Virus record (IMG/VR): IMGVR_UViG_3300031354_000003
Location: 1-50,106 of that record
From: a virus
Lineage: Duplodnaviria; Caudoviricetes
Length of the DNA stretch: 50,106 bases
Direction: 5' to 3' (one strand)
Shown here piece by piece: positions 2,393-50,106 of the stretch (positions are counted from its first letter, which is position 1; each line of letters begins with the position of its first letter). Under the pieces are notes generated by a model that worked only from the letters and a program-made list of their open reading frames with translations, was not told the origin of the DNA and ran no database searches. A program made the position numbers and the translations under genes.

Positions 2393-2422
2393 TGTGTTTC
2401 CCTTTCGTCAGCTCCTAATACT

Positions 2423-2867: not shown

Positions 2868-2897
2868 TGGATTTCCCTTTCGTCAGCTCCTGATAAT

Positions 2898-3822: not shown

Positions 3823-4127
3823 GGACCGACCCCGGACCGACCCCCGGACCGACCCCCCGTCGGTCAGAGATTTACTTGGGATTCCGGGTATTTATTCTGT
3901 ACTTATTTTAAGGGACCGACTAAAACCCTAAAAGTTTATTCCGGACCCCTATTACACAAATAGTGGAATTACTACAGTATTTATAGAACTAGCAAAAAAC
4001 AGTAAAAAATATCCAGTCCAACACGACTTTAGGTCGGTCCGTCGGTCCATATCGTGCAAGCTCCCGGAATCAAAGGCATCGTCATGACCGACCCCCCCTC
4101 GGGCTGGGGTCGGTCCATGGTCGGTCC
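3823..4127. repeat. Putative replication origin: symmetric GGACCGAC iteron array around an AT-rich core
   Basis: GGACCGAC at 3823, 3834, 3846, 3913; GTCGGTCC at 4033, 4041, 4109, 4120; AT-rich 3920-4020; non-coding. Confidence 0.65.
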
Positions 4128-6603: not shown

Positions 6604-6921
6604 TTATCGCGGTTCCATCGTTTCCGGGTCCGCATCTACTAACCCTGGGTCCCACCCCATGCTGAGGACGAGCATCCCGAGGTGCCTTTTATAGTCTTCA
6701 AGGTAACTTTTTTTAATCCTGCAGTACACATACCTGTAGTAGACTCGTACTGCTTTAACCCACGCGCTGTAGTCGCCGGCATCGTTTGCGTTGTAGGTGT
6801 CGCACAAGAGCTCAGCTTCTTTTTTTCTCCCGGAGCAATGCACTGAGCGTCCGTTGACAGTGTCGCAGACCTGCCATGGTCTCGAAGGGCTGCTGGATTT
6901 ATTCACCTCGTATCTTGCCAT
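6604..6921 (-). CDS. Hypothetical early protein
   Basis: 105 aa; leader GGAGCTGACGAAAGGAAGACAAAATG; flanked by promoter direct repeats. Confidence 0.7.
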   Translation of the reverse strand: MARYEVNKSSSPSRPWQVCDTVNGRSVHCSGRKKEAELLCDTYNANDAGDYSAWVKAVRVYYRYVYCRIKKSYLEDYKRHLGMLVLSMGWDPGLVDADPETMEPR

Positions 6922-6951
6922 TTTGTCTTCCTTTCGTCAGCTCCTAATAAT

Positions 6952-10268: not shown

Positions 10269-10625
10269 TTAATTTCTCGCCGTCATCAGCTCCTTGGCCT
10301 CGGCGACGTTGATTGTCCGGCCCCTGTGACGCCGGATTCTGGCCTTTATCTCCTTAGGGTCCTGTTCGGTGTACTCGGCTACCGCTTCGACAAAGGCTGC
10401 CACGGGGCGCGTCCCTCGGGAGCTGTTGCATTTCAGGCAGCAGGTCACCAGGTTTCCGGCCTCGTTGGTCCCGCCCTTGCTGTACGGCTTGATGTGGTCC
10501 AAGGTCAGTTTGGTCTCTTGCTCGACGGACGCCTGGCAGTAGATACAGGCCATGCCGTCGCGGAGGTAGATGGCCAGGCGTTTTTCGTCCCGAATCCAAT
10601 GCATTCCTTGCGTCCGTTTTTTCAT
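10269..10625 (-). CDS. HNH endonuclease (Zn-binding McrA-like)
   Basis: RDGMACIYC...TLDHIKPYSKGGTN...NLVTCCLKCNSSRG; AGGAGG RBS. Confidence 0.9.
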   Translation of the reverse strand: MKKRTQGMHWIRDEKRLAIYLRDGMACIYCQASVEQETKLTLDHIKPYSKGGTNEAGNLVTCCLKCNSSRGTRPVAAFVEAVAEYTEQDPKEIKARIRRHRGRTINVAEAKELMTARN

Positions 10626-10749: not shown

Positions 10750-12486
10750 ATGTCGAATATTAAACAGTTTATCAGCGTAAATATCAACGGGATTCCGCGA
10801 CTTGAGACGTTAATCGGAGGCCGGGTTTGGCCAACGCATGCGCACAGCTCGCACTCCGGGCTCTCGGCGGACGACCACACGCAATACATGCTAAATACTG
10901 CGGGCATCGCCAGGCAGTTCACGGGCGACGTCTATTTTCAGCAGGATCTCCGGGGCACCGGCCGCCTGCGGCTGGATGACAACTTCCGCGCCGGCCAGGG
11001 GACTTGGACCCAGGACGGCATCGACGTGTCCGTGGGGGCCTCAGAATGGGCTGCGCTGTATGCGGCATTCGGCGGCCATGTTTCGATAATCGGAGCCCTG
11101 AATACGCTCAGCAGCGGACTGTTTGGTCTCGAGGAAGACCAAGTTCTATTTGGGGACACCGACGGGACTGTCGCGCAGTCGAGCAGCTTGAAATACGATC
11201 CGGATATAACTCAACTCGTGCTCGATGTCGCCTTTCCAGGGGCTACGGCGCTGGGTGCCGGTGTTATCGCACCGACTGTAGGGGTAGGCCAGGGGTTTTA
11301 TCTGCACACAAACGCCAGGATTGACAGCCCCACGAGGTCCGGGAGCACGTGGGCGGCATCCGGGGTCAAGCTCGCTGACGACTCGGACGAGTGGGACGAT
11401 ATGGAATCACTTGGCGGCGGGGAGGTTTCCCTGTTCGCCTTGATTTCGGCCGCGGCAGCCTCGGGCGCAGTGACCGGTCTCGAGGAGGACCAAGTTCTTT
11501 TGGGTGGATTCTCGGGTGGCATCGAACAGTCAAGCAGCTTGCAGTTTGATGATGTCGATTTGACGATATCCGAGGACCCGGACGTCGACCCGACGCACGT
11601 CATGACGATAAATTGGCACCAGATTTTTGGCGGTGATAACGTGACGCTTGATGGCGAGGTAGACAAAATATTCGCCCTCGGTACCAATTTGGAGCTGAAT
11701 GGGTCGCCAAATTATTTGGCTGTCTTGGGATCCGGGACTGTAGATGCCGATAGGTCTCTTATCGCGGGAAGCGTGCTCGATATAGGGCAGGGTACCGGGC
11801 ACACCGGCGCCCAGGCGGATGCGTTGCTTTGCCTGGGTACGAACCTCACGGTCGATGCCGACTTCGGGTCCGTAATCGGTACTGTTATAGACATCGATTC
11901 GGGCAACTTTGTCTCGGCACTCGGCCAGCATATCGACATTTCCCATGACTACGCCACGGCTCGCGGAAACTATGTGTCTACTATCTGGGAGGGCGCCAGG
12001 CATTACGCCCTGGACCAATACGATTCGGACCCTGGGTCCGCGATGGGCGTGGATGGCCTTGTGCTCGTCGGGGACCAATCCGGTGGGGGCCCGTGCGTTT
12101 TGCACACCACATTTTCGGATACCGCGGACTACTCGTTTTCGATACCCGACAGCCGGGCTGTTTTGATTGAGTTTGACGTCATGACGTCTTCTGTCGGCAC
12201 GGACGCCAGTAAAAACGGGCTGTATGCTCGTACGGGTACTGCGCTCCTTTGGCGCAACGGCGGCTTTTTCGGGTGGGAGAATGACTCGACTGTGGTCGTA
12301 GACCGCGGCGGCTCTGACGGCGATTCTTGGACAACTTCGGTAGCATTCACACACAACCCGGCTGACCCGGATGGTGCTGTTCGGGTTACGGTGACTGTCA
12401 CCGGAACCTGTACCACGGATTTGATTCATGAGCTCGTCATCAAATCGGCAATCGTAATGCAAACAGCGTATTACAAATCGAGTTAA
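10750..12486 (+). CDS. Fibre-like virion protein (possible head/neck fibre)
   Basis: HSGLSADDHTQY fibre motif, internal duplication (GLEEDQVLxG...QSSSLxxD twice) and Gly-rich beta-roll-like repeats. Confidence 0.6.
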   Translation: MSNIKQFISVNINGIPRLETLIGGRVWPTHAHSSHSGLSADDHTQYMLNTAGIARQFTGDVYFQQDLRGTGRLRLDDNFRAGQGTWTQDGIDVSVGASEWAALYAAFGGHVSIIGALNTLSSGLFGLEEDQVLFGDTDGTVAQSSSLKYDPDITQLVLDVAFPGATALGAGVIAPTVGVGQGFYLHTNARIDSPTRSGSTWAASGVKLADDSDEWDDMESLGGGEVSLFALISAAAASGAVTGLEEDQVLLGGFSGGIEQSSSLQFDDVDLTISEDPDVDPTHVMTINWHQIFGGDNVTLDGEVDKIFALGTNLELNGSPNYLAVLGSGTVDADRSLIAGSVLDIGQGTGHTGAQADALLCLGTNLTVDADFGSVIGTVIDIDSGNFVSALGQHIDISHDYATARGNYVSTIWEGARHYALDQYDSDPGSAMGVDGLVLVGDQSGGGPCVLHTTFSDTADYSFSIPDSRAVLIEFDVMTSSVGTDASKNGLYARTGTALLWRNGGFFGWENDSTVVVDRGGSDGDSWTTSVAFTHNPADPDGAVRVTVTVTGTCTTDLIHELVIKSAIVMQTAYYKSS

Positions 12487-20377: not shown

Positions 20378-20773
20378 ATGATATTTTGCACCCAAATACG
20401 ACGGACGACGGAAAAGAGCAGACTGGCGCCCGTAGTGGTCTCGGTTGACGATGTCCTGGCGCAGTTTGCCGGGCCCCCGACGACCGGGTCGCCGTGCGAC
20501 GTGTTCCAACTTCGGGTACGCGTGCAAGCGGATTCCGATCAGGACGGGGTTCCGGATGACGGCTCCGAGGTGTGGGGCTTCTGGGAGATGGAAAAAATAT
20601 TCTACGCCAGCACATCACAGCGAGCGGTCGTTGACGCCAGGCTCAGAGGCGCCGGAAACCTGATGGCCGGAATCCGGACATTTTTCAAGGCTAGGGTCCG
20701 GGAACATAACGAATCGATGTCTCCTGGGGACACTCAGGAGACCTATACCGACATAGATACGGACGCCGCCTAG
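20378..20773 (+). CDS. Hypothetical structural protein
   Basis: AAGGAGG RBS, 131 aa. Confidence 0.6.
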   Translation: MIFCTQIRRTTEKSRLAPVVVSVDDVLAQFAGPPTTGSPCDVFQLRVRVQADSDQDGVPDDGSEVWGFWEMEKIFYASTSQRAVVDARLRGAGNLMAGIRTFFKARVREHNESMSPGDTQETYTDIDTDAA

Positions 20774-20781
20774 GGGCATCA

Positions 20782-22551
20782 ATGGCGGGGTTTCGCATAC
20801 AGTGCACGACAACGACGCCGGGCGAGACTGTCACCCTTCCGACAGTCTCCGGGTACACTTACGACGCCATCGTATACTGGGGTGACGGTAACCAGAGTAC
20901 GATAACCGCCTATAACGACCCAGATATAACTCACCTTTACGCTTCGACGGGGGACCATGTATTAGAGATCATGGGCAGCTTTCCCGCGTGGTCCGTCAAC
21001 AATACGCATTCGAGCAAACTCCAATGGACGGGTATCGTGTACTGGGGGGACTCCGCTGACTTCGATGGATGGCAATACTTGTACGGCGGGTGGAATGGGT
21101 GCTCTAATTTAGCCTCTCTCGGCACCGGAAAAATTATTAGCGACGGATTGTCTAGCTTATACAGGACGTTCCGATTGACGGGCATAGCATCCATCCAGTC
21201 AGATATTTTTGATAACTGCGTAAACGCCACGAACGCTTATTCTGTTTTAAACTCATGCCCAAATCTTGGATCGATTCCCGACGGGCTTTTAAAGCCGCTT
21301 ATCGGCTGCGATTATTTTGCCTACGCATTCACCAATTGCACGTTGGCTAGGATTAACCCGTGGGTGTTTTATGACGACGGTGACCAGGGGGCTAGATTCC
21401 TAAATAAGAGCCCAAACTTTGACAGCATCTTCAGCGGCACCGGAACAAGCTTGTCGGATAACACCATCCCGGATTTATGGACCTGCGATTACGGGTCCGG
21501 GACTCCGTCCCACGCAGCGTGGATAACCGGGCACAGCGCCAGTACTTTGACGAACTATAATTTCATCCCCGTTTCGTGGGGCGGCACCGCTTTCAGCCCG
21601 TCGATTAAACCATTGACCGGTTCCTACGTTTACGACGGGCTGGACGTCGGTCAATCGAGAGACTTCCTCAGCAAGCTGTCGACCGGGTCCTATGTCTACG
21701 ATGGGCTGGACGTCGGGCAGTCGAGAGACTTCCTCAGCAAGCTGTTGACCGGTTCCTACGTTTACGACGGTCTGGATGTCGGTCAATCGAGAGACTTCAT
21801 CAGCAAGCTGCTGACTGGTTCCTATGTTTACGATGGGTTGGATGTAGGTCAATCGAGAGATTTTATCAGCAAGCTGCTGACCGGTTCCTACGTCTACGAC
21901 GGCCTGGATGTCGGGCAGTCAAGAGACTTCATCAGCAAGCTGCTGGCCGGTTCCTATGTCTACGACGGGTTGGATGTCAACATCATAACGCCAACGCGGG
22001 GTCTCGGGCCGGGAAACTATTTGTACTCCGGCCTGGCTCTCGGAGTCACGTCGCCCTACCATCCTATGACGGCTATCGTGTCCTGGATTCAAGGTATTGT
22101 CGGCTCTGGCATCCCGGTAATACTTGCGGACCAAAATGCGCCGGTGCCGACGGGAGCCTATCTGTCGGTGAGATTTGTGACGCAGACCAGCACCCCGGAC
22201 AAGATTGCTGACCGCAGGCGGTCCGGGTCCGTTATTCGATACCATATGGAAAGCACGGACATCTTGGGCGTTGACGTCAAAGCGTTTGTGGCATCCGGGG
22301 CGACCTTACTCCGTCAGATAGAGCTCGGAGCTAGCGACCCGCACTCCCGAGGCGTCCCGGCGCTGATTGACTGCGGGCCTATTTATGGCCCCGCGTTTTT
22401 CAACGACACGCACTACCGGCCGATGTACCACTGCGAGTTCCGATTCCGGGTGCCGGCATCCTTGGACACCGTCGGATCGCGAGTACAGACACTGGGGCTG
22501 GGTGGGGATGTCGACAGCCTGGAACCGGCGGTTGAAGAAACTTTTGAGTAG
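20782..22551 (+). CDS. Fibre-like protein (PKD/BspA-like head + 22-aa repeats) fused to a tail terminator domain
   Basis: VYWGDG...ITHLY, LRR-like stretch, repeats, then WIQG...VILADQNAPVP..YLSV directly upstream of the sheath. Confidence 0.7.
   Translation: MAGFRIQCTTTTPGETVTLPTVSGYTYDAIVYWGDGNQSTITAYNDPDITHLYASTGDHVLEIMGSFPAWSVNNTHSSKLQWTGIVYWGDSADFDGWQYLYGGWNGCSNLASLGTGKIISDGLSSLYRTFRLTGIASIQSDIFDNCVNATNAYSVLNSCPNLGSIPDGLLKPLIGCDYFAYAFTNCTLARINPWVFYDDGDQGARFLNKSPNFDSIFSGTGTSLSDNTIPDLWTCDYGSGTPSHAAWITGHSASTLTNYNFIPVSWGGTAFSPSIKPLTGSYVYDGLDVGQSRDFLSKLSTGSYVYDGLDVGQSRDFLSKLLTGSYVYDGLDVGQSRDFISKLLTGSYVYDGLDVGQSRDFISKLLTGSYVYDGLDVGQSRDFISKLLAGSYVYDGLDVNIITPTRGLGPGNYLYSGLALGVTSPYHPMTAIVSWIQGIVGSGIPVILADQNAPVPTGAYLSVRFVTQTSTPDKIADRRRSGSVIRYHMESTDILGVDVKAFVASGATLLRQIELGASDPHSRGVPALIDCGPIYGPAFFNDTHYRPMYHCEFRFRVPASLDTVGSRVQTLGLGGDVDSLEPAVEETFE
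21616..21978 (+). repeat. 66-bp coding tandem repeat (5 full + 1 partial), TGSYVYDGLDVGQSRDF(L/I)SKL(S/L)
   Basis: Units start at 21616, 21682, 21748, 21814, 21880 and 21946; differences are mostly synonymous. Confidence 0.95.
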
Positions 22552-34311: not shown

Positions 34312-34569
34312 CTAGCTCTGCTCGAATGGCGCCTTAGACGGTTCCGGTAGAGACTTCCCAGTCTCGACGTAGTACTGGATAACGTCTATCTTTACAAGCT
34401 GCAGCCTTACGATGGCTTCGTCAATCGTGTCCCCAGTAGCGCTACAAGAACTGTACCCGAAGTCAGGTAGAAATGCGTAAAAATAGCCATCGGTACCATC
34501 CTCGGAGATGAAGAAAATTTGGATGGGGTATTGGACGCTAAACAGCGCCTGTAATTCTTTGTTTTCCAT
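34312..34569 (-). CDS. hicB: HicB-family antitoxin-like protein (orphan, no DNA-binding domain)
   Basis: YPI...EDG..G.F.A.LPDF...CSATGDTIDEA........I......GK.LPEPS. Confidence 0.8.
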   Translation of the reverse strand: MENKELQALFSVQYPIQIFFISEDGTDGYFYAFLPDFGYSSCSATGDTIDEAIVRLQLVKIDVIQYYVETGKSLPEPSKAPFEQS

Positions 34570-34584
34570 AGGTTTTCCTTTCGT

Positions 34585-34890
34585 CTATTCGTCGTAAGAC
34601 TTGCACCAGCAAAGCCGACACCGACCCTGTGAGTCGTCTTTCGGATGTAAAGCGGGCTCGACACCGCAAATCGAGCATGATGGCTGCCCGATGTAGTGCT
34701 CCCGGCACCAAATGCCGGATGGCGTCCATCGGAGCTTATAGGACTTGCAGCGGTGGTACGAGCACTCAAACCGTTGGATTTCCTTTTTTGAATCTTTTGT
34801 CCGGTCGTCGTTTCCATCGACGGCCGGGATTACGATGTACGGCACCTCTTGGGCCTCGTACCACTTCTGCTCGCGCTCTTTAAGCGACAT
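34585..34890 (-). CDS. Cys-rich hypothetical protein
   Basis: Several CxxC motifs; GAGGAG RBS. Confidence 0.55.
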   Translation of the reverse strand: MSLKEREQKWYEAQEVPYIVIPAVDGNDDRTKDSKKEIQRFECSYHRCKSYKLRWTPSGIWCREHYIGQPSCSICGVEPALHPKDDSQGRCRLCWCKSYDE

Positions 34891-36851: not shown

Positions 36852-37041
36852 AGTCTTTGTCCGGGTTTTTGTCTGCCGGTATCAGGCGGTCTGGGCACGT
36901 CGATGCATCGGTATCAAAAGGCCGGATGACTGCGTCGATTGGGGTGTAGAACATGCGGTCGTCGCGCAACTTACATCTCGCATGCATCCAGCTATACCAA
37001 GCGCAGCCGCCGCATATCGGTTTATTGGTTTTCTTGGTCAT
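36841..37041 (-). CDS. Small Cys-rich hypothetical protein
   Basis: CxxC...C...C; overlapping operon. Confidence 0.5.
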   Translation of the reverse strand: MTKKTNKPICGGCAWYSWMHARCKLRDDRMFYTPIDAVIRPFDTDASTCPDRLIPADKNPDKDYDA

Positions 37042-37246
37042 TCAGAACGATCTCCATATCTTTTAGCAACGATCTGACGGACCTACGGTTTTTCCACAGC
37101 GACCACACCAAGTAGGGCGCCCCACAGTTTATGGACGCCGCGATTTTCTTCGCGCGGGAGTCGCCAGAAAAGTCATCCAGCACTGCTTCTTTTGCTGTCT
37201 CGTACAGCCTCCCATTTTTAGCCCTATACCGCTCTACTTTTTCCAT
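37022..37246 (-). CDS. Hypothetical protein
   Basis: 74 aa, GAAAAGGAAAAC RBS. Confidence 0.55.
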   Translation of the reverse strand: MEKVERYRAKNGRLYETAKEAVLDDFSGDSRAKKIAASINCGAPYLVWSLWKNRRSVRSLLKDMEIVLNDQENQ

Positions 37247-37443
37247 CGCTTGTTTTCCTTTTCGTAGTCTAGAATTAAGTCCTCTGTCCGGGTATATGTC
37301 TCATACAGCCCGGCCCACAGCACCCTGCAATGCCTCGCAGCCGTAGCGACTACCACGCCTTCGCAGGCCGGATTCTTTCGCCACCGGACACTGGCACCTG
37401 GGCGAAATCCGCAGAAGCCAGATGGCAGCTCGCATCGTCTCAC
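37234..37443 (-). CDS. Hypothetical SH3-like protein
   Basis: FRPGASVRW...GVVV...RVLW pattern. Confidence 0.45.
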   Translation of the reverse strand: MRRCELPSGFCGFRPGASVRWRKNPACEGVVVATAARHCRVLWAGLYETYTRTEDLILDYEKENKRWKK

Positions 37444-44710: not shown

Positions 44711-45660
44711 TCACCCACCAATAGGATTTCGACTTCCTCGAGCAAAGCCGTCAGGTCTTCATCTTTCACGTCGCGCGAGTTCCGTAACCCGTGCTTCTTC
44801 GCGAACGAAGCGAGTTGTTCCGGCGACCTGTTCTTGAGCGCCAGTATCGCCCGCTCGAACTGCTGCCTGACTTTCGCCGGGTCGGCGGGCACCGGCTTGA
44901 CTGTCTCCGGCTCCGGGATGAAAGCGCCAAAAGGTTGCTCTTCTTTGACTTCCTCCTCTAGTGGGAGCTGTCGCTGCGTGAACGGGTCTTCCGACGGTGC
45001 CGGCTCCTCGGCGACCGGCTCCTCGGCGACCGGCTCCTCGGCGACCGGCTCCTCGGCTGCAGGCTCCTCGGCTGCAGGCTCCTCGGCTGCAGGCTCCTCG
45101 GCGACCGGGTATTTTGGGCCTCCGACGGCGCGGAAAGCAGCGCATTTTGTGCTGTCCGCGGACAAGGCCCGCATATGAGCCTCACAGTACCATCCGTCAT
45201 CGTTGACGGCCGCCGACAGGCACTGAGCGCACTCCCCGGGCTTTTCGTCAAGGCCTGCCCTCGACGGCCGTGGCTTCCCGCGCGGCTTCCGGCACGCCTT
45301 TATCCCGGCCTCCTCGGGTGCCGGCTGCTCGGGTGCCGGCTGCTCGGGTGCCGGTTGCTCGGGTGCCGGTCGCTCGGGTGCCGGTCGCTCGGGTGCCGGT
45401 CGCTCGGGTGCCGGTTGCTCGGGTGCCGGTTGCTCGGGTGCCGGTTGCTCGGGTGCCGGTTGCTCGGGTGCCGGTTGCTCGGGTGCCGTTGAAGACGACG
45501 CTCTCCGCGGCCCGCGGCCCAGTCTCACACATGCAAGCCTATCGTCCTCGCCGTCTTGCGCTTTTGCGACCCGATAACTGGTCAAAGCAGCCCCAACGTT
45601 CGTGATCAATTCTTTGTCCGACTCCGTGTCGGCCGTTATCCAGATTTCAATTGTCGCCAC
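44707..45660 (-). CDS. Hypothetical replication-module protein with Pro/Glu repeat linkers
   Basis: GTG start with AGGAG RBS; upstream of DUF2800 as in APSE-like modules. Confidence 0.7.
44999..45107 (-). repeat. 15-bp coding repeat x7, P(V/A)AEE
   Basis: CTCCTCGGCGACCGG / CTCCTCGGCTGCAGG units. Confidence 0.9.
45313..45488 (-). repeat. 15-bp coding repeat x~11.5, APE(Q/R)P
   Basis: CTCGGGTGCCGG(T/C)(T/C)G units. Confidence 0.9.
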
Positions 45661-45674
45661 TTTCTATCTCCTTC

Positions 45675-46094
45675 TCAGTTGTCAAACCAGAATACAAATC
45701 TGGTGTCTTTTACCCACCGGACATCGGGTTCGTCGAAGTAATTGCCCTCGCAGTAGCACCCCAAAACGTGGTGGTGCAGGTCTTTTTTATCCCAAGGGAT
45801 CGCTCCGTCGTAGCGTCCGTTGTCATACCACTCCCTGAGCTCCTCGATTTCGTTGGAATCGAGCCAGCTGTGTGAGTGGCCGTCAGTCCCCCAGTCCACG
45901 GAAGACTGCCCTACGATGTAAGAGATGTCTTCCGGCAGCCCTTTTGGCCACGATATCGGATTCGTTTCTGTATAATTCCGGACACCGGCCATCTTTGCAA
46001 ACAGCTCGTAGTCTCGGGCTACCGTAGGGTGGCCGTAAAGCTCCCAGCCGTTCTCAGTCAAAACTTCAATGTACAGATGAATATCGCAACCCAT
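45675..46094 (-). CDS. Conserved phage hypothetical protein (MGCDIH...RxYxLF...RFVFWFDN)
   Basis: Motif pattern I recognise from phage hypotheticals; AAGGAG RBS. Confidence 0.75.
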   Translation of the reverse strand: MGCDIHLYIEVLTENGWELYGHPTVARDYELFAKMAGVRNYTETNPISWPKGLPEDISYIVGQSSVDWGTDGHSHSWLDSNEIEELREWYDNGRYDGAIPWDKKDLHHHVLGCYCEGNYFDEPDVRWVKDTRFVFWFDN

Positions 46095-46134
46095 TAAGTC
46101 AGCTCCTTTCAGTTCTTCATCAGCCCTCCGACTG

Positions 46135-46163
46135 AATCTAAGCGCTTTGTACTAAACACGCAA
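46135..46163 (-). promoter_or_regulatory. Promoter of the leftward replication operon (TTGCGT-17-TAGATT)
   Basis: In the divergent gap; the leader contains GGAGCTGAC like the early leaders. Confidence 0.6.
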
Positions 46164-46491: not shown

Positions 46492-48585
46492 ATGTCTGAC
46501 ATACTGACTCCTTCGAATCCGTTCGACCCGGCCGTCGACGCCTCACTGCCGAAAGCGGCCGATGGGGACGCTTACAACTACGCGTCGATGGGATACCGGG
46601 TTTTTCGGTGCGTCGGCAAAAAACCATCCCGCGGGCTCAGATGGAAAAGTTACGCATCCGCGGATACCGCGGTCGTGTCGCAAGAGTTTCAGGGCAAAAA
46701 GTCAAAAAGCAATATAGCAATCGTAGTCCCCAGGGATATGGTCGTCATTGACATCGATGACGAGGCCGTCTGGAAGACCGTAAAAGATGAGCTGAAGTTC
46801 AAAATAGGCAAAGACGTGCCATGTGCGCGGACGGGCGGCGGCGGCCGACATCTATGGTTTCGGCTGCCGTCGACAAAGACTCACGGAAACCAGCGGGGGA
46901 ACCTCCCACCTGGAATAGACGTCCGAGGCGGCGGCCTTGGGTACCTAATCGCCCCGCCGTCCATACACCCGGATACCGGCAAGTACTACGAGTGGCTGCC
47001 AGGTCGCGAGCTGCGGCCACGGGAGACCATCCCGAAGATTCCCGGCATCCTATTTAAGCTCATCACAGGCAAGCTAATCGTCCCGTCAATGCCCTCAGCA
47101 TCCCTTGTGCAGGCGAAAGAGAGCACGATAAAGGCTCTCAAGGGCGCGTCCGAGGGAGATCGCAACGAAGCCCTCAACCGGCAGCTGTTTGTCCTTGCAC
47201 GGAAGTGGGCGGGCGGCGGCCGAGACATCGAGGAGCTGCGGAACGAGTTCCAATCGGTCGGCGAGGAAATGGGCCTCGCCAAGGGAGAAGTCGCCGCAAC
47301 CATCGCATCGGCACTCAAATCGGGAGCCGATAGACCGATCTCCCAAATCTCGCTGGACTCTGAGGACAAGATACCAGCGACCCCGGAAAACATCGGAAGG
47401 ATGCTACACGGCGCGGAAATGCATGGTGTGCTGGGTTACAACGTCCGGAAAGCGACCACCGAAATCCTGGCAGCTCCGCCATGGTCAGTCGACCCAGAAG
47501 ATAAATATCCCCGCAGCTTTGAGGACACCGATGCCTGGGAGCTGGCAAAATGGCTGAATAGACTCGGGTGCGCCGGCGCCCGGCAAGCTATCTGCGGGGC
47601 GGCCGCGGCCGCGGAATCCAAGAGTAACAAAGTCGACCATGTCGTCAAATACCTCGAGAGCCTACCAGCATGGGACAACACCGCGCGAATCGACAATTGG
47701 CTGGTAGACTACTGCGGTGCCGAGCCAATCGAGCTCAACCGGCAGTACGCGGCCAAGACGCTCATCGGAGCCGTAGCCCGGGCGATGGACCCCGGGTGCA
47801 AGATGGACACCTGTCTCGTAATGTGCGGTAGGCAGGGGGCCAGGAAATCGTCCGTCGTCGCCGAGATCGCCGGCGGCGCGCACGGAGGGTACCACGACGC
47901 CGCGCTGGACTTCAAAGATGACGTCCGGCTCCGGAAGGCCATCCACAACGGCCAGTGGTTGCACGAAATCAAAGAGATTGACCAATTCTCAAAGGTCAGC
48001 CAGGGGTACTTCAAGGACATCCTCGACACCCGGATTGATTCGTTCATCCCGAAGTATGGCCGCTTCATCGTCGACCTACCGCGCCGCTCTATTTTCATCG
48101 CCACGACAAATGTAGCCTCCATCCTCCGGGACCCGACCGGTAGCCGTCGGTACTGGCCTGTCATGGTCAAAGACATCTACTATCTCGAGGTGCGCAGAAT
48201 CCGGGACCAACTGTGGGCCGAGGCGAAATATCGGTACGAGCGCGGAGAAGCTTGGTGGCTCGAGGAGAAAATGGACGAGGCCCGGGCCCAGAATGCATCC
48301 GAGTTTGAAATCGAGCTCGTGGGGATGGAATCCATACTCCGGTATGTCCGAGACCAGCGCCCGGAGTATCTCACGTTCGACGACGTTACAAATTTCATCC
48401 CTCGAAACGGGCTGCTCGGAACCCCGCAGCAGCACTTCGGCGCGATGATGAAGGAACTCGGCTGGGAGCGTGAGCGGGTTTACTCCTACGGCCGCCGGAT
48501 TTCGGCGTACAAGCCACCGAAAGAATTCTACGAAAAATTAGAGCCGGTCAGCGCAGAAGAGCGCGGGATTGCTTTAGAATACTGA
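46492..48585 (+). CDS. Bifunctional Prim-Pol primase + VirE/VapE SF3 helicase
   Basis: NIAI, VIDID, RTGGGGRHLWF, IDVRG...APPSIH; PGCKMD, GRQGARKS, EIKE, TTN and DPTGSRRYW. Confidence 0.93.
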   Translation: MSDILTPSNPFDPAVDASLPKAADGDAYNYASMGYRVFRCVGKKPSRGLRWKSYASADTAVVSQEFQGKKSKSNIAIVVPRDMVVIDIDDEAVWKTVKDELKFKIGKDVPCARTGGGGRHLWFRLPSTKTHGNQRGNLPPGIDVRGGGLGYLIAPPSIHPDTGKYYEWLPGRELRPRETIPKIPGILFKLITGKLIVPSMPSASLVQAKESTIKALKGASEGDRNEALNRQLFVLARKWAGGGRDIEELRNEFQSVGEEMGLAKGEVAATIASALKSGADRPISQISLDSEDKIPATPENIGRMLHGAEMHGVLGYNVRKATTEILAAPPWSVDPEDKYPRSFEDTDAWELAKWLNRLGCAGARQAICGAAAAAESKSNKVDHVVKYLESLPAWDNTARIDNWLVDYCGAEPIELNRQYAAKTLIGAVARAMDPGCKMDTCLVMCGRQGARKSSVVAEIAGGAHGGYHDAALDFKDDVRLRKAIHNGQWLHEIKEIDQFSKVSQGYFKDILDTRIDSFIPKYGRFIVDLPRRSIFIATTNVASILRDPTGSRRYWPVMVKDIYYLEVRRIRDQLWAEAKYRYERGEAWWLEEKMDEARAQNASEFEIELVGMESILRYVRDQRPEYLTFDDVTNFIPRNGLLGTPQQHFGAMMKELGWERERVYSYGRRISAYKPPKEFYEKLEPVSAEERGIALEY

Positions 48586-48650
48586 AAGAAATGGCCCCTG
48601 GGGATGCCGGTAATACATTCCCAGGGGCCAAAAACTGTGAAACACAAGTT
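48584..48650 (-). ncRNA. Candidate small RNA 2 (~65 nt)
   Basis: TTGACA(48685-48680)-17-TAGAAA promoter, then hairpin and U-rich tail; no ORF. Confidence 0.35.
48592..48630. terminator. GC-rich hairpin, probable bidirectional intrinsic terminator
   Basis: TGGCCCCTGGGGATG/CATTCCCAGGGGCCA; followed by TTTCTTT on the minus strand. Confidence 0.75.
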
Positions 48651-48687
48651 GTTTTCTTTCTATGCGATTTTCGGGTGGCTGTCAAGA

Positions 48688-48763
48688 TAAAGGGTGCCCC
48701 CTGAGACAGGAGTTAAGTATCTCAGGGGGCGTCAAAAAGGTCTGACGAAAAGGAAGGTCTGAC
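48688..48763 (-). ncRNA. Candidate small RNA 1 (~75 nt), antisense to the early-gene leader/RBS
   Basis: TTGACA-17-TATACT promoter at 48798-48770; contains CUUCCUUUUCGUCAG; ends in hairpin 48696-48730. Confidence 0.55.
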
Positions 48764-48769
48764 TGCTTG

Positions 48770-48798
48770 AGTATAGGATGCCGGGGTCCGGGTGTCAA
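48770..48798 (-). promoter_or_regulatory. Near-consensus sigma70 promoter (TTGACA-17-TATACT)
   Basis: The best match to consensus I found in the window; no RBS/ORF downstream before the hairpin. Confidence 0.8.
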
Positions 48799-49415
48799 GT
48801 TTTTGTCGCGGGCTGCCGATGCATCTCCGGGTCTTCAAGCATCTCCAAAATAGCAACCCGGAGGTCGGCCGCGGTTGCGCAGATTCTTTTTGACTGCAGG
48901 TATGCCAAATTGTATCCGTGCGGGTATATATCAAGTCGGGCCCGCCTCCCGGAATGCGGAGCGTCAAGCGCTAACTCATAGTAAACGCTGTAAGGACCCT
49001 CGTTTCGGTCGATATAGATACGGCTTCCAAGAGCCTCTTTAACCTCGTCAAGCAGCCGATTCAGCGGGGCCTCTCTGCTTTGTAGGTCGTCCGCCTTGAC
49101 GAAGCCACGTCTGTAGGCGTCAAGGAATTCATTCTCCTTCAATTTGTCCGTAGGCTCCGATGTGTCGAGGGTTTCACCTGCGTCAACAGGTGCGAACGCC
49201 TGGTAAGAGTATGCGGAGCTCCAACCCCCTAAATCGGAGTCCCATTTTATTACCAGTTTTGGCTTGCCGTCTACAGTCTCTAAAGTACGCCGCCGGTTTG
49301 CGTATTTGCTACCAAACTGCCAGAGTTGACTGTCACCAGATCTGTCTATAAAGATTCCGCCGAATGACTTCGGGTCGTCGGTCTCATTCAGCAGCTTCAG
49401 CGTCACTTTTTTCAC
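48795..49415 (-). CDS. Hypothetical protein, paralog of 49412..49636
   Basis: GTG start with AGGAGG RBS; VTLKLLNETDDPKSFGG...QLW.FG...ANR...WDSDL..WSS. Confidence 0.7.
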   Translation of the reverse strand: MKKVTLKLLNETDDPKSFGGIFIDRSGDSQLWQFGSKYANRRRTLETVDGKPKLVIKWDSDLGGWSSAYSYQAFAPVDAGETLDTSEPTDKLKENEFLDAYRRGFVKADDLQSREAPLNRLLDEVKEALGSRIYIDRNEGPYSVYYELALDAPHSGRRARLDIYPHGYNLAYLQSKRICATAADLRVAILEMLEDPEMHRQPATKT

Positions 49416-49636
49416 CGTCCGGCCTCCTTTCTGCCATCGCCAGAAGGGACGGGTGCCATGCTGCCCCATACAGAGCTCCACCTTTCCAAGTCAGAATCCC
49501 ACGCCGAATGCGACCTGTTCGCAAATCTCCCCCCGAACCTCCAAAGTTGGTTGTTACCTACCGTACCGATATGGACTCCGCCGAACGCTTTTGGGTCGTC
49601 GGTCTCGTTGAGAAGCTTCAGTGTCACATCTTTCAT
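49412..49636 (-). CDS. Hypothetical protein (short paralog, 74 aa)
   Basis: MKDVTLKLLNETDDPKAFGG...; GAGGAGG RBS. Confidence 0.65.
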   Translation of the reverse strand: MKDVTLKLLNETDDPKAFGGVHIGTVGNNQLWRFGGRFANRSHSAWDSDLERWSSVWGSMAPVPSGDGRKEAGR

Positions 49637-49905: not shown

Positions 49906-50106
49906 TCAGTGATTCCTTTCGGCCCCCGTGAGGTCGGCCCCTGTGAGATTGGCCCCCGTGAGGTCGGCCCCCCTGAGATTGGTCCCCGTGAGGTCGGCCC
50001 CTGTGAGGTCGGCCCCCCTGAGATTGGCCCCTGTGAGGTCGGCCCCCGTGAGGTCGGCCCCTGTGAGATTGGCCCGCGTGAGGTCGGCCCCCGTGAGGTT
50101 GGCCCC
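49906..50106 (-). CDS. Pentapeptide repeat protein, C-terminal part
   Basis: [15 protein letters not shown] ... GAERNH*; in frame with 252..1. Confidence 0.9.

Follow-up and report, generated by a model that had tools for sequence, protein, structure and literature searches.

What does a near-consensus promoter do when it points into a gap that holds no recognisable gene? The window analysed here, the whole stretch of 50,106 bp in IMG/VR record IMGVR_UViG_3300031354_000003, is a whole virus (Caudoviricetes) rated 100% complete, and it raises this question on its minus strand, in a 209-nucleotide (nt) gap at 48586-48794 between the primase-helicase gene (plus strand) and the last gene of a leftward early operon (minus strand). 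An earlier note on this DNA took the locus for a small RNA (sRNA) that would occlude the ribosome-binding sites (RBSs) of a whole early regulon. Its observation is largely correct; its interpretation holds up as plausible for three genes, goes too far for the regulon and has no support for immunity. We read the locus as a candidate sRNA acting in trans on the leaders of three early genes, a role to which we assign a probability of roughly 0.3. The layout is sRNA-like in sequence, with a near-consensus, operator-free promoter, an unpaired CU-rich 5′ tract and structured 3′ hairpins, and the candidate appears well formed with modest statistical support. Comparisons are made with G001, the sole close relative, which is 49,526 bp long, collinear and 89.0% identical over 41,729 aligned positions.

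A predicted promoter that points into a gap

Promoters of the sigma-70 type are taken here as hexamers near TTGACA/TATAAT, spaced by 16-18 nt, in which the −10 has A as its second and T as its sixth base. The minus-strand site at 48798-48770 agrees with the consensus at 11 of 12 positions and is the best match in the genome, as a predicted promoter only. Its elements are:

48793-48798, minus strand: −35 hexamer TTGACA, overlapping the TGA stop of a 206/228-aa open reading frame (ORF); identical in G001
48770-48775, minus strand: −10 hexamer TATACT, 17-nt spacer from the −35; identical in G001

The transcription start would lie at about 48764/48763. No credible ORF was found downstream of the promoter, which agrees with the earlier description of TTGACA-17-TATACT driving no recognisable gene. 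The claim that this promoter lacks the operator palindrome also stands, with no CACC-N4-GGTG at the site. It is closer to consensus than the cassette promoters of the phage itself (TTGCAG...TATCTT, with TG upstream). In G001, both hexamers are intact, and three changes fall in the spacer and start region.

No other 11/12 match in the genome has both of these −10 bases; the second 11/12 site, with TTTAAT, lies within a gene on the opposite strand. Simulated first-order genomes (n = 200) contain on average 0.255 sites of at least 11/12, and 23% of them have at least one, so the match by itself is weak evidence. The placement is more telling. Gaps of at least 100 nt number 13 and total 4.4% of the genome by rough gene calls, and the promoter sits at the edge of one of them, directed inward; we estimate that about 0.01 chance sites with such placement and orientation are expected. 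On these sequence grounds, the odds tip modestly towards transcription from this promoter.

The predicted RNA and its hairpins

The RNA that would be read downstream of the promoter on the minus strand is AGUCAGACCUUCCUUUUCGUCAGACCUUUUUGAC, and its parts, in the order of transcription, are:

48742-48764, minus strand: CU-rich 5′ tract AGUCAGACCUUCCUUUUCGUCAG, unpaired in the fold, with core CCUUCCUUUUCGUC complementary to leader GACGAAAGGAAG
48731-48745, minus strand: 6-bp mini-hairpin GUCAGA/UUUGAC, carrying the second copy of direct repeat GUCAGACCUU; hairpin not kept in G001
48696-48730, minus strand: hairpin H1, 13 bp with a 9-nt loop, then ACCCUUUAUCUU, no proper U-tract
48631-48695, minus strand: H1-H2 spacer of 65 nt, richer in AT; identity to G001 is about 69%, and CUUGACAG and CUUGUGUUUCAC are conserved islands
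48582-48630, minus strand: hairpin H2 (stem-loop 48630-48592, 11+4 bp) and tail AUUUCUUUC, which overlaps the primase stop codon at 48583-48585

The 79-nt RNA folds at −30.1 kcal/mol (z = −5.6), which none of 200 shuffles equals, and leaves nt 1-18 free. The tract AGUCAGACCUUCCUUUUC is unpaired in this predicted fold, and its core CCUUCCUUUUCGUC resembles the anti-Shine-Dalgarno tail.

H2 and H1 have the longest stems in the plus-strand hairpin list, at 15 and 14 pairs (the next has 13). Both form the stem-loop of an intrinsic terminator on the minus strand, here and in G001, and only H2 is followed by a U-tract (AUUUCUUUC; AUUUUUUG in G001), H1 being followed by ACCCUUUAUCUU (AACCUUUACCUU in G001). 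A terminator consensus scan listed neither, because its stem and loop rules exclude both. From its sequence, H2 is likely an intrinsic terminator for minus-strand RNA. The RNA would thus end after H1 (~75 nt) or, likelier by sequence, at H2 (~180 nt). The earlier note had proposed an RNA of ~75 nt closed by a hairpin of at least 11 bp; the hairpin is real, with 13 bp, and the length is uncertain, since H1 has no U-tract and the better H2 gives ~180 nt.

Rfam 15 returned no match at gathering scores over the whole window, and at E ≤ 10 over 48450-48950 it gave only three chance-level matches, the best at 20.3 bits against a cut-off of 44. The search for tRNA and tmRNA found none.

Predicted pairing with the early leaders

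Seven near-identical promoter cassettes stand on the minus strand before the genes starting at 10625, 6921, 6515, 3675, 2867, 2392 and 515, which are small genes lacking an annotated function, a DNA methyltransferase or an HNH endonuclease. An operator palindrome lies between −35 and −10, as CACC-N4-GGTG in six cassettes and as a wider-spaced variant in the 515 cassette; for a protein that might bind it, the HTH_3 search gave no match. G001 has cassettes at 11242, 14773, 17374, 18412, 20072 and 31523. The cassettes and the leaders that concern us are:

10672, 6970, 6569, 3716, 2916, 2441 and ~545, minus strand: cassettes with TTGCAG or TTGACC, CACC-N4-GGTG in the spacer, an extended −10 and an AGGAGCUGAC leader
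2393-2417, minus strand: leader of gene 2126-2392; predicted target, pairing energy −22.3 kcal/mol, rank 1/87
2868-2892, minus strand: leader of gene 2496-2867; predicted target, −21.2 kcal/mol, rank 2/87
6922-6946, minus strand: leader of gene 6604-6921, AGGAGCUGACGAAAGGAAGACAAA before AUG; predicted target, −20.8 kcal/mol, rank 3/87

These predicted target genes encode proteins of 88, 123 and 105 aa. No PHROG family was found for any of them, and a Pfam search that covered the 123- and 105-aa proteins returned no family for either.

Within the tract, CUUCCUUUUCGUCAG (48756-48742) is complementary to CUGACGAAAGGAAG in the 6921 leader (6940-6927) with one bulged U, which confirms the 14-bp, one-bulge pairing with 6927-6940 described earlier. 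Pairing was scored as the energy gained on dimer formation by the 79-nt RNA, with intramolecular structure allowed. Across 87 start regions the leaders at 2392, 2867 and 6921 take ranks 1-3, with the next best at −18.7 kcal/mol; the other cassette leaders rank 12, 13, 25 and 60, and the 34569 leader ranks 41. The statement that the RNA pairs nearly as well with 2392, 2867, 515 and 34569 therefore holds for the first two, and fails for 515 (−11.3 kcal/mol, rank 13/87) and for 34569 (−7.2 kcal/mol, rank 41/87). When the set is widened to 331 starts preceded by a Shine-Dalgarno-like sequence, the same three leaders keep ranks 1-3 and the other cassette leaders fall at 10, 21, 42 and 195. Four of the seven cassette leaders thus pair like ordinary RBSs, at odds with the idea of one sRNA for the whole regulon. 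The G001 RNA, set against 320 G001 sites, places cassette-type leaders at ranks 1, 2, 4, 9 and 12.

Shuffling the 34-nt 5′ part gives two answers, depending on the question. Against the three leaders the real sequence averages −22.1, a value that not one of 150 shuffles reaches (their mean is −10.9, standard deviation 3.1), while 9 of 150 find an equally good target somewhere among the 87 start sites, a look-elsewhere effect. The three leaders are near-copies of each other and so count as one event. The complementarity is real, specific to a subset of leaders and statistically suggestive, at p < 0.01 for the named family and ~0.06 for any target. As a candidate seed, the tract pairs best with the three leaders, and the other four cassette leaders and the 34569 leader do not share in this.

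When 33,388 genome windows of 24 nt served as pseudo-antisense RNAs, the tract came out as the 14th distinct locus for leader 6921 and the 9th for leader 2392. Seven of the better loci in each list are the opposite strand of the leader family itself, which leaves a small number of unrelated windows in coding sequence that equal the tract.

A number of observations weigh against a dedicated anti-leader RNA. Purine-rich RBSs match any CU-rich tract. Other RBSs come within 2-4 kcal/mol of the leaders (6003 at −18.7; 38322 at −17.1), six windows outside the leader family match or beat the tract's duplex energy with the 6921 leader, and the 9 of 150 shuffles just mentioned belong here too. If the RNA runs on to H2, as a 185-nt molecule, the leaders score −18.1 to −19.6 and are overtaken by 38322 (−21.0) and 6003 (−20.0), so that the top rank is lost. 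H1, the hairpin that would close the shorter RNA, lacks a U-tract, and in the window the GUCAG end of the tract is predicted to lie inside the mini-hairpin.

Two further matches named in the earlier note are of less weight. At 37255-37265, TTCCTTTTCGT is indeed a perfect 11-nt complement in the RBS of the 74-aa gene 37022-37246, and the pairing energy is only −11.2 kcal/mol. The HNH leader does contain GACAGGAG; the H1 stem takes up half of its proposed partner in the hairpin, CUCCUGUC, which is missing from G001, where the HNH leader is retained. A relative that keeps the leader without the complement was an outcome that the earlier note itself had named as telling against its proposal, and the HNH match falls with it.

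An exploratory comparison of the two strands speaks for a wider but weaker effect, with better pairing at minus-strand starts. Minus-strand (early/replication) starts have a median of −8.0 (n = 33, the three leaders excluded) and plus-strand (late) starts a median of −4.85 (n = 34), with a one-sided Mann-Whitney p of 0.0037 on rough gene calls. This difference may come from A-richer early leaders alone.

Leader-like RBSs are also found outside the cassettes. The 11-mer GACGAAAGGAA serves as RBS of the 34569 gene (34575-34585, minus strand) with no operator cassette, and a 4-A variant, ACGAAAAGGAA, as RBS of gene 37022-37246 (37255-37265, minus strand). The RBS of gene 45675-46094 (46097-46136, minus strand) reads GAAAGGAGCUGACUUAAUG and carries the AGGAGCUGAC leader motif with no operator; it is the tract's best non-self duplex match in a coarse genome-wide scan, at −30.3 kcal/mol. 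The phage seems to favour an extended Shine-Dalgarno module. The 34569 gene had been labelled HicB, a label that comes down to a sub-threshold Pfam match of its 85-aa product (34315-34569, minus strand) to HicB_lk_antitox (E = 0.023, 15.3 bits against a cut-off of 27).

Conservation in the relative

IMG/VR was queried with the primase, the 206-aa protein, DNA polymerase A, the cassette pattern and two sRNA patterns, and these queries yielded one close relative, G001; the remaining primase matches are at 31-40% identity. In JGI metagenomes the primase query found the contig of G001 again together with distant matches. No match to the 21-nt tract or to the primase was found in GTDB genomes, and blastn against GenBank phages gave pentapeptide-repeat matches only. 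Among public sequencing runs, no RNA run was listed as containing the stretch, and the four runs compared consist of DNA contigs. Salt-marsh DNA contigs add two observations: X3 has the G001-type replacement (joint 48648>48727, 74 other letters), and X5 is a third variant over the locus (68 differences, 6 gaps), which was left out of the covariation analysis. That the locus is carried by two genomes only, and by the one contig variant X5, is a further point against the proposed role.

G001 keeps the tract as GUCAGACCUUCCUUUUCGUC, identical save for A>G at 48743 (T>C on the plus strand), which turns CGUCAG into CGUCGG. The earlier note had rested the specificity of pairing on the CGUCAG extension and had looked to covariation of sRNA and leader in related phages. 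Neither is borne out by G001, where the changed seed gives a wobble, two of the four GACGAAAGG leaders have AUGACG for CUGACG with pairing energies reduced to −17.0 and −18.5 kcal/mol, and no change is compensatory, all of which counts against the anti-leader reading. With one relative, in which the core GACGAAAGG / CCUUUUCGUC is invariant and thus uninformative, co-variation of seed and target is not seen. Nor are promoter and tract better conserved than many coding stretches, since 94 identical runs of at least 50 nt occur genome-wide. Local conservation was considered as evidence in its own right and rejected: the identical run 48787-48854 is ordinary, with at least 40 runs of at least 74 nt across the genome.

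The hairpins tell more. In G001, the sequence of H1 is replaced and the geometry is again 13 bp with a 9-nt loop. The window H1 is nearly as stable on either strand (−25.4 kcal/mol on the RNA strand, −24.0 on the other), while the G001 H1 is stable on one strand only, at −21.5 kcal/mol on the RNA (minus) strand and −14.1 on the other, because of four G.U pairs. H2 of G001 is a perfect stem with tail AUUUUUUG. MAFFT misaligns the rewritten H1. The structural conservation of H1 on the RNA strand points to a function in a minus-strand RNA, and it fits an sRNA and the 3′ end of an operon mRNA alike, so it does not tell these two apart.

The same hairpin bears on whether the locus might instead work as DNA, as an origin of replication or a protein-binding site beside the primase-helicase gene, with direct repeats AGGTCYGAC (17 nt apart) and TGTCAAG (twice) as binding sites and the AT-richer spacer. 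Origins lie just 3′ of primase or rep genes in some satellites, and the locus is immediately 3′ of the primase-helicase gene; its GC content is 43-50% against 56% for the genome, and the two copies of GTCAGACCTT at the locus are the only ones in the genome at ≤1 mismatch, with the repeat core kept in G001. Such repeats are, however, at chance level, since 2.79 twice-occurring 10-mers are expected and 80 of 100 shuffles have at least two. The GC skew turns at ~7 kb and ~34 kb with gene direction, not at the locus, and the conservation of H1 on one strand through G.U pairs argues for RNA, not DNA. We consider a DNA-level element quite unlikely.

Conservation of the tract could also be read from the plus strand, where the leader-like GAAAAGGAAGG (48746-48756) would be the RBS of a 28-codon ORF (TTG at 48767 to TAG at 48853) on read-through primase mRNA. 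The stretch is near-identical to a true leader and RBS (CTGACGAAAAGGAAG), the TTG lies 10 nt beyond it, the frame is open to 48853, and G001 keeps the frame with one synonymous and one Gly>Val change. This ORF would nevertheless have to start at TTG and lacks its own promoter, G001 has lost the ATG at 48778, and the frame is too short for a homology test. The conservation is already accounted for by the 206-aa gene, whose conserved C-terminus lies antisense to the frame, and we regard the ORF as very unlikely. A relic of an inverted promoter cassette on the plus strand was likewise tried and rejected, as by eye the likeness is confined to the leader-like stretch of 15-20 nt and is absent in the G001 H1.

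The end of the leftward early operon

The candidate sRNA lies between two genes:

46462/46492-48585, plus strand: primase-helicase gene with Prim-Pol and VapE domains, stop codon 48583-48585
48795-49415/49481, minus strand: 206/228-aa ORF, its TGA stop overlapped by the −35 hexamer

One pentapeptide-repeat gene (15-nt period) contains both ends of the record (49906-50106 joined to 1-~200), and the same gene is uninterrupted in G001 (20448-21118), so the map is circular or circularly permuted. By its sequence, the record was apparently broken by the assembler at the tandem repeat of this gene. Internal repeats of ~66-70 nt at 21600-21980, inside the large plus-strand gene 20782-22551, coincide with the ends of the G001 record (1-461, 49149-49526), whose assembly is likewise broken at a repeat.

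On the circular map, the locus is the distal end of the leftward (minus-strand) early arm. A transcript from the 515 cassette would cross the pentapeptide gene and three further ORFs, reach the stop at 48795 and then enter the gap. The adjacent genes 49412-49636 and 48795-49415 (minus strand) are nearly alike in their first 20 residues (MK[KD]VTLKLLNETDDPK[SA]FGG) and then diverge, with no Pfam or PHROG family for either. The hairpin scan also shows short tandem or inverted GC-rich repeats at 3823-3855, 4086-4115 and 45371-45395 (GGTCGGTCC units; GGTGCCGGTCGCTCGG units).

The locus begins right at the stop of the final minus-strand gene and faces the primase gene, a position that favours a plainer account, in which H1 and H2 are only tandem terminators or 3′-end stabilisers of the leftward early operon. 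The CU-rich tract would be 3′ untranslated sequence, perhaps a C-rich, G-poor Rho entry site, the hexamers would be silent or unimportant, and the leader match would reflect no more than the affinity that pyrimidine tracts in general have for purine-rich RBSs. An operon mRNA explains the strand-specific conservation of H1 equally well, and the account is helped by the frequency of promoter matches in simulated genomes, by the shuffles with an equal target, by the many ordinary RBSs among the top duplex matches, by the loss of the leader ranking with the 185-nt RNA, and by the lack of tract-leader covariation. It leaves unexplained the genome's best promoter match at the edge of a gap, oriented inward, which is improbable by chance, with hexamers intact in G001. 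It also has to accommodate three leaders at ranks 1-3 in two sets of sites, cassette-type leaders at ranks 1, 2 and 4 in G001, and 150 shuffles without one that equals the pairing with the leaders. We hold it about as probable as the anti-leader role.

An sRNA could also be real and have another job, either as a cis-antisense RNA to read-through primase transcripts, in the manner of lambda OOP, where it would interfere with transcription or lead to cleavage of the double-strand RNA, or as an RNA that regulates host mRNA through its anti-Shine-Dalgarno-like tract. The promoter is convergent with the primase-helicase gene. On the plus strand H2 and H1 are followed by A-runs and no terminator is evident, so primase transcripts probably cross the locus and are perfectly complementary to the RNA (self −62.6 kcal/mol). 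Phage sRNAs of both the cis-antisense and the host-directed type are known (PMC12197685; bioRxiv 10.1101/2024.10.31.621285). An RNA that ends at ~48584-48590 would, however, overlap at most the stop codon of the primase and not its coding sequence, and the leader complementarity would then be a coincidence (p < 0.01 with no look-elsewhere correction). Such a function seems doubtful.

Proposed mechanism

From the promoter-like site, the fold, the way it is conserved on the RNA strand and the rank that the complementary leaders reach, we infer how an anti-leader RNA would be transcribed, where it would end, and how it might pair and repress in vivo. The 209-nt gap would encode a minus-strand sRNA driven by the sigma-70-type promoter, which is near-consensus and operator-free and has its −35 across the stop codon of the gene upstream. 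This RNA would share the terminators of the operon, ending after H1 or, likelier, at H2. Its first ~18-23 nt, predicted to be unpaired, CU-rich and anti-Shine-Dalgarno-like, would pair with about +6 to +20 of the ~26-nt leaders of the three operator-controlled early genes (2392, 2867, 6921). With the Shine-Dalgarno sequence covered, translation would be dampened or shut off as the RNA accumulates. Other purine-rich RBSs of early and replication genes may be affected too, more weakly.

A broader version of this scheme would make the RNA a constitutive mimic of the 16S rRNA 3′ tail in a virulent phage, an RNA counterpart of T4 RegA/RegB. Accumulating RNA would titrate the purine-rich GACGAAAGGAA-type RBSs of early and replication genes, the three standardised leaders first, and would spare the GGAGG-type sites of late genes, serving as a translational timer on top of the operator-controlled promoters. 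We think this version unlikely.

Relation to known systems

From the Rfam result, the candidate is not a member of any described RNA family. The known phage sRNAs that control the programme of the phage itself come mainly from temperate models, where they are one-target antisense RNAs (c4, sar, OOP). One of these, c4, is cut out of the leader of its own operon. In the excerpted text of PMC12197685, c4 of P1/P7 is a phage sRNA that pairs around the RBS of another phage transcript and blocks its translation, and the candidate is like it in being phage-encoded and in pairing at the RBS region (PMC12197685). As described there, c4 has one target, the antirepressor operon, and serves immunity in a temperate phage, whereas the candidate would act on three short leaders of early genes with no assigned function.

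The phage itself also differs from those that carry c4. Profile searches of the 100%-complete record gave no match to Phage_integrase, Resolvase or HTH_3, so there is no sign of lysogeny, and the proteins of the predicted targets have no assigned family. A lysogeny module or an antirepressor target, as expected of a temperate immunity RNA, is thus not seen, and the carrier-state switch or superinfection immunity offered in the earlier note finds no footing. Its replication module is made up of a family-A DNA polymerase, an SNF2 helicase, a PD-(D/E)XK/DUF2800 nuclease and the Prim-Pol/VapE primase. A virulent lifestyle is probable.

P22 sar and lambda OOP are, in the same excerpted text, short cis-antisense RNAs with their own constitutive-type promoters and a hairpin end that down-regulate a phage gene (PMC12197685). 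OOP converges on the 3′ end of the gene that it targets, as the candidate locus does on the primase gene (PMC12197685). From that account sar and OOP overlap their targets and are fully complementary to them, whereas the candidate offers 14 bp and a bulge to targets that lie 40-46 kb off on the map, a distance of ~2-7 kb when measured across the circular junction. Toward the primase, the H2 tail (~48582-48591) reaches the stop codon (48583-48585) at most, so that overlap with a coding 3′ end of the OOP type is not found.

The regulatory logic is closer to that of T4. In the excerpted text of PMC3014915, RegB cuts GGAG in the Shine-Dalgarno sequence and RegA binds many translation initiation regions, and early mRNAs are shut off (PMC3014915). 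One factor acting on many early initiation regions and ending the early phase is the shared logic (PMC3014915). RegA and RegB, as presented there, are proteins, whereas the agent here would be an RNA, with only three leaders above ordinary RBSs.

Bacterial 3′-UTR (untranslated region) sRNAs with their own promoter and a shared mRNA terminator include DapZ and MicL. The candidate is similar in placing its promoter where the upstream ORF ends, in its 5′ seed, predicted to be single-stranded, and in sharing terminators with the operon, and by its sequence the layout most resembles an sRNA of this kind, with its own promoter at an operon 3′ end. DapZ and MicL differ from the phage candidate in being chromosomal, Hfq-dependent and enterobacterial. 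Among the papers listed by full-text searches, no title or abstract opening presents a phage sRNA that targets a leader shared by the phage's own early genes, which is not proof of absence.

Significance for phage gene control

If the anti-leader reading is true, a lytic, uncultured salt-marsh phage uses one trans-acting RNA against several near-identical leaders. The action of this RNA would be like that of c4 but spread over several leaders, its logic would be that of RegA/RegB, and the phage that carries it is apparently lytic. Each gene has a standard cassette of promoter, operator and leader, so the pairing rules would be directly testable by reporters. Such an RNA would be a simple RNA-based switch-off of an early gene set.

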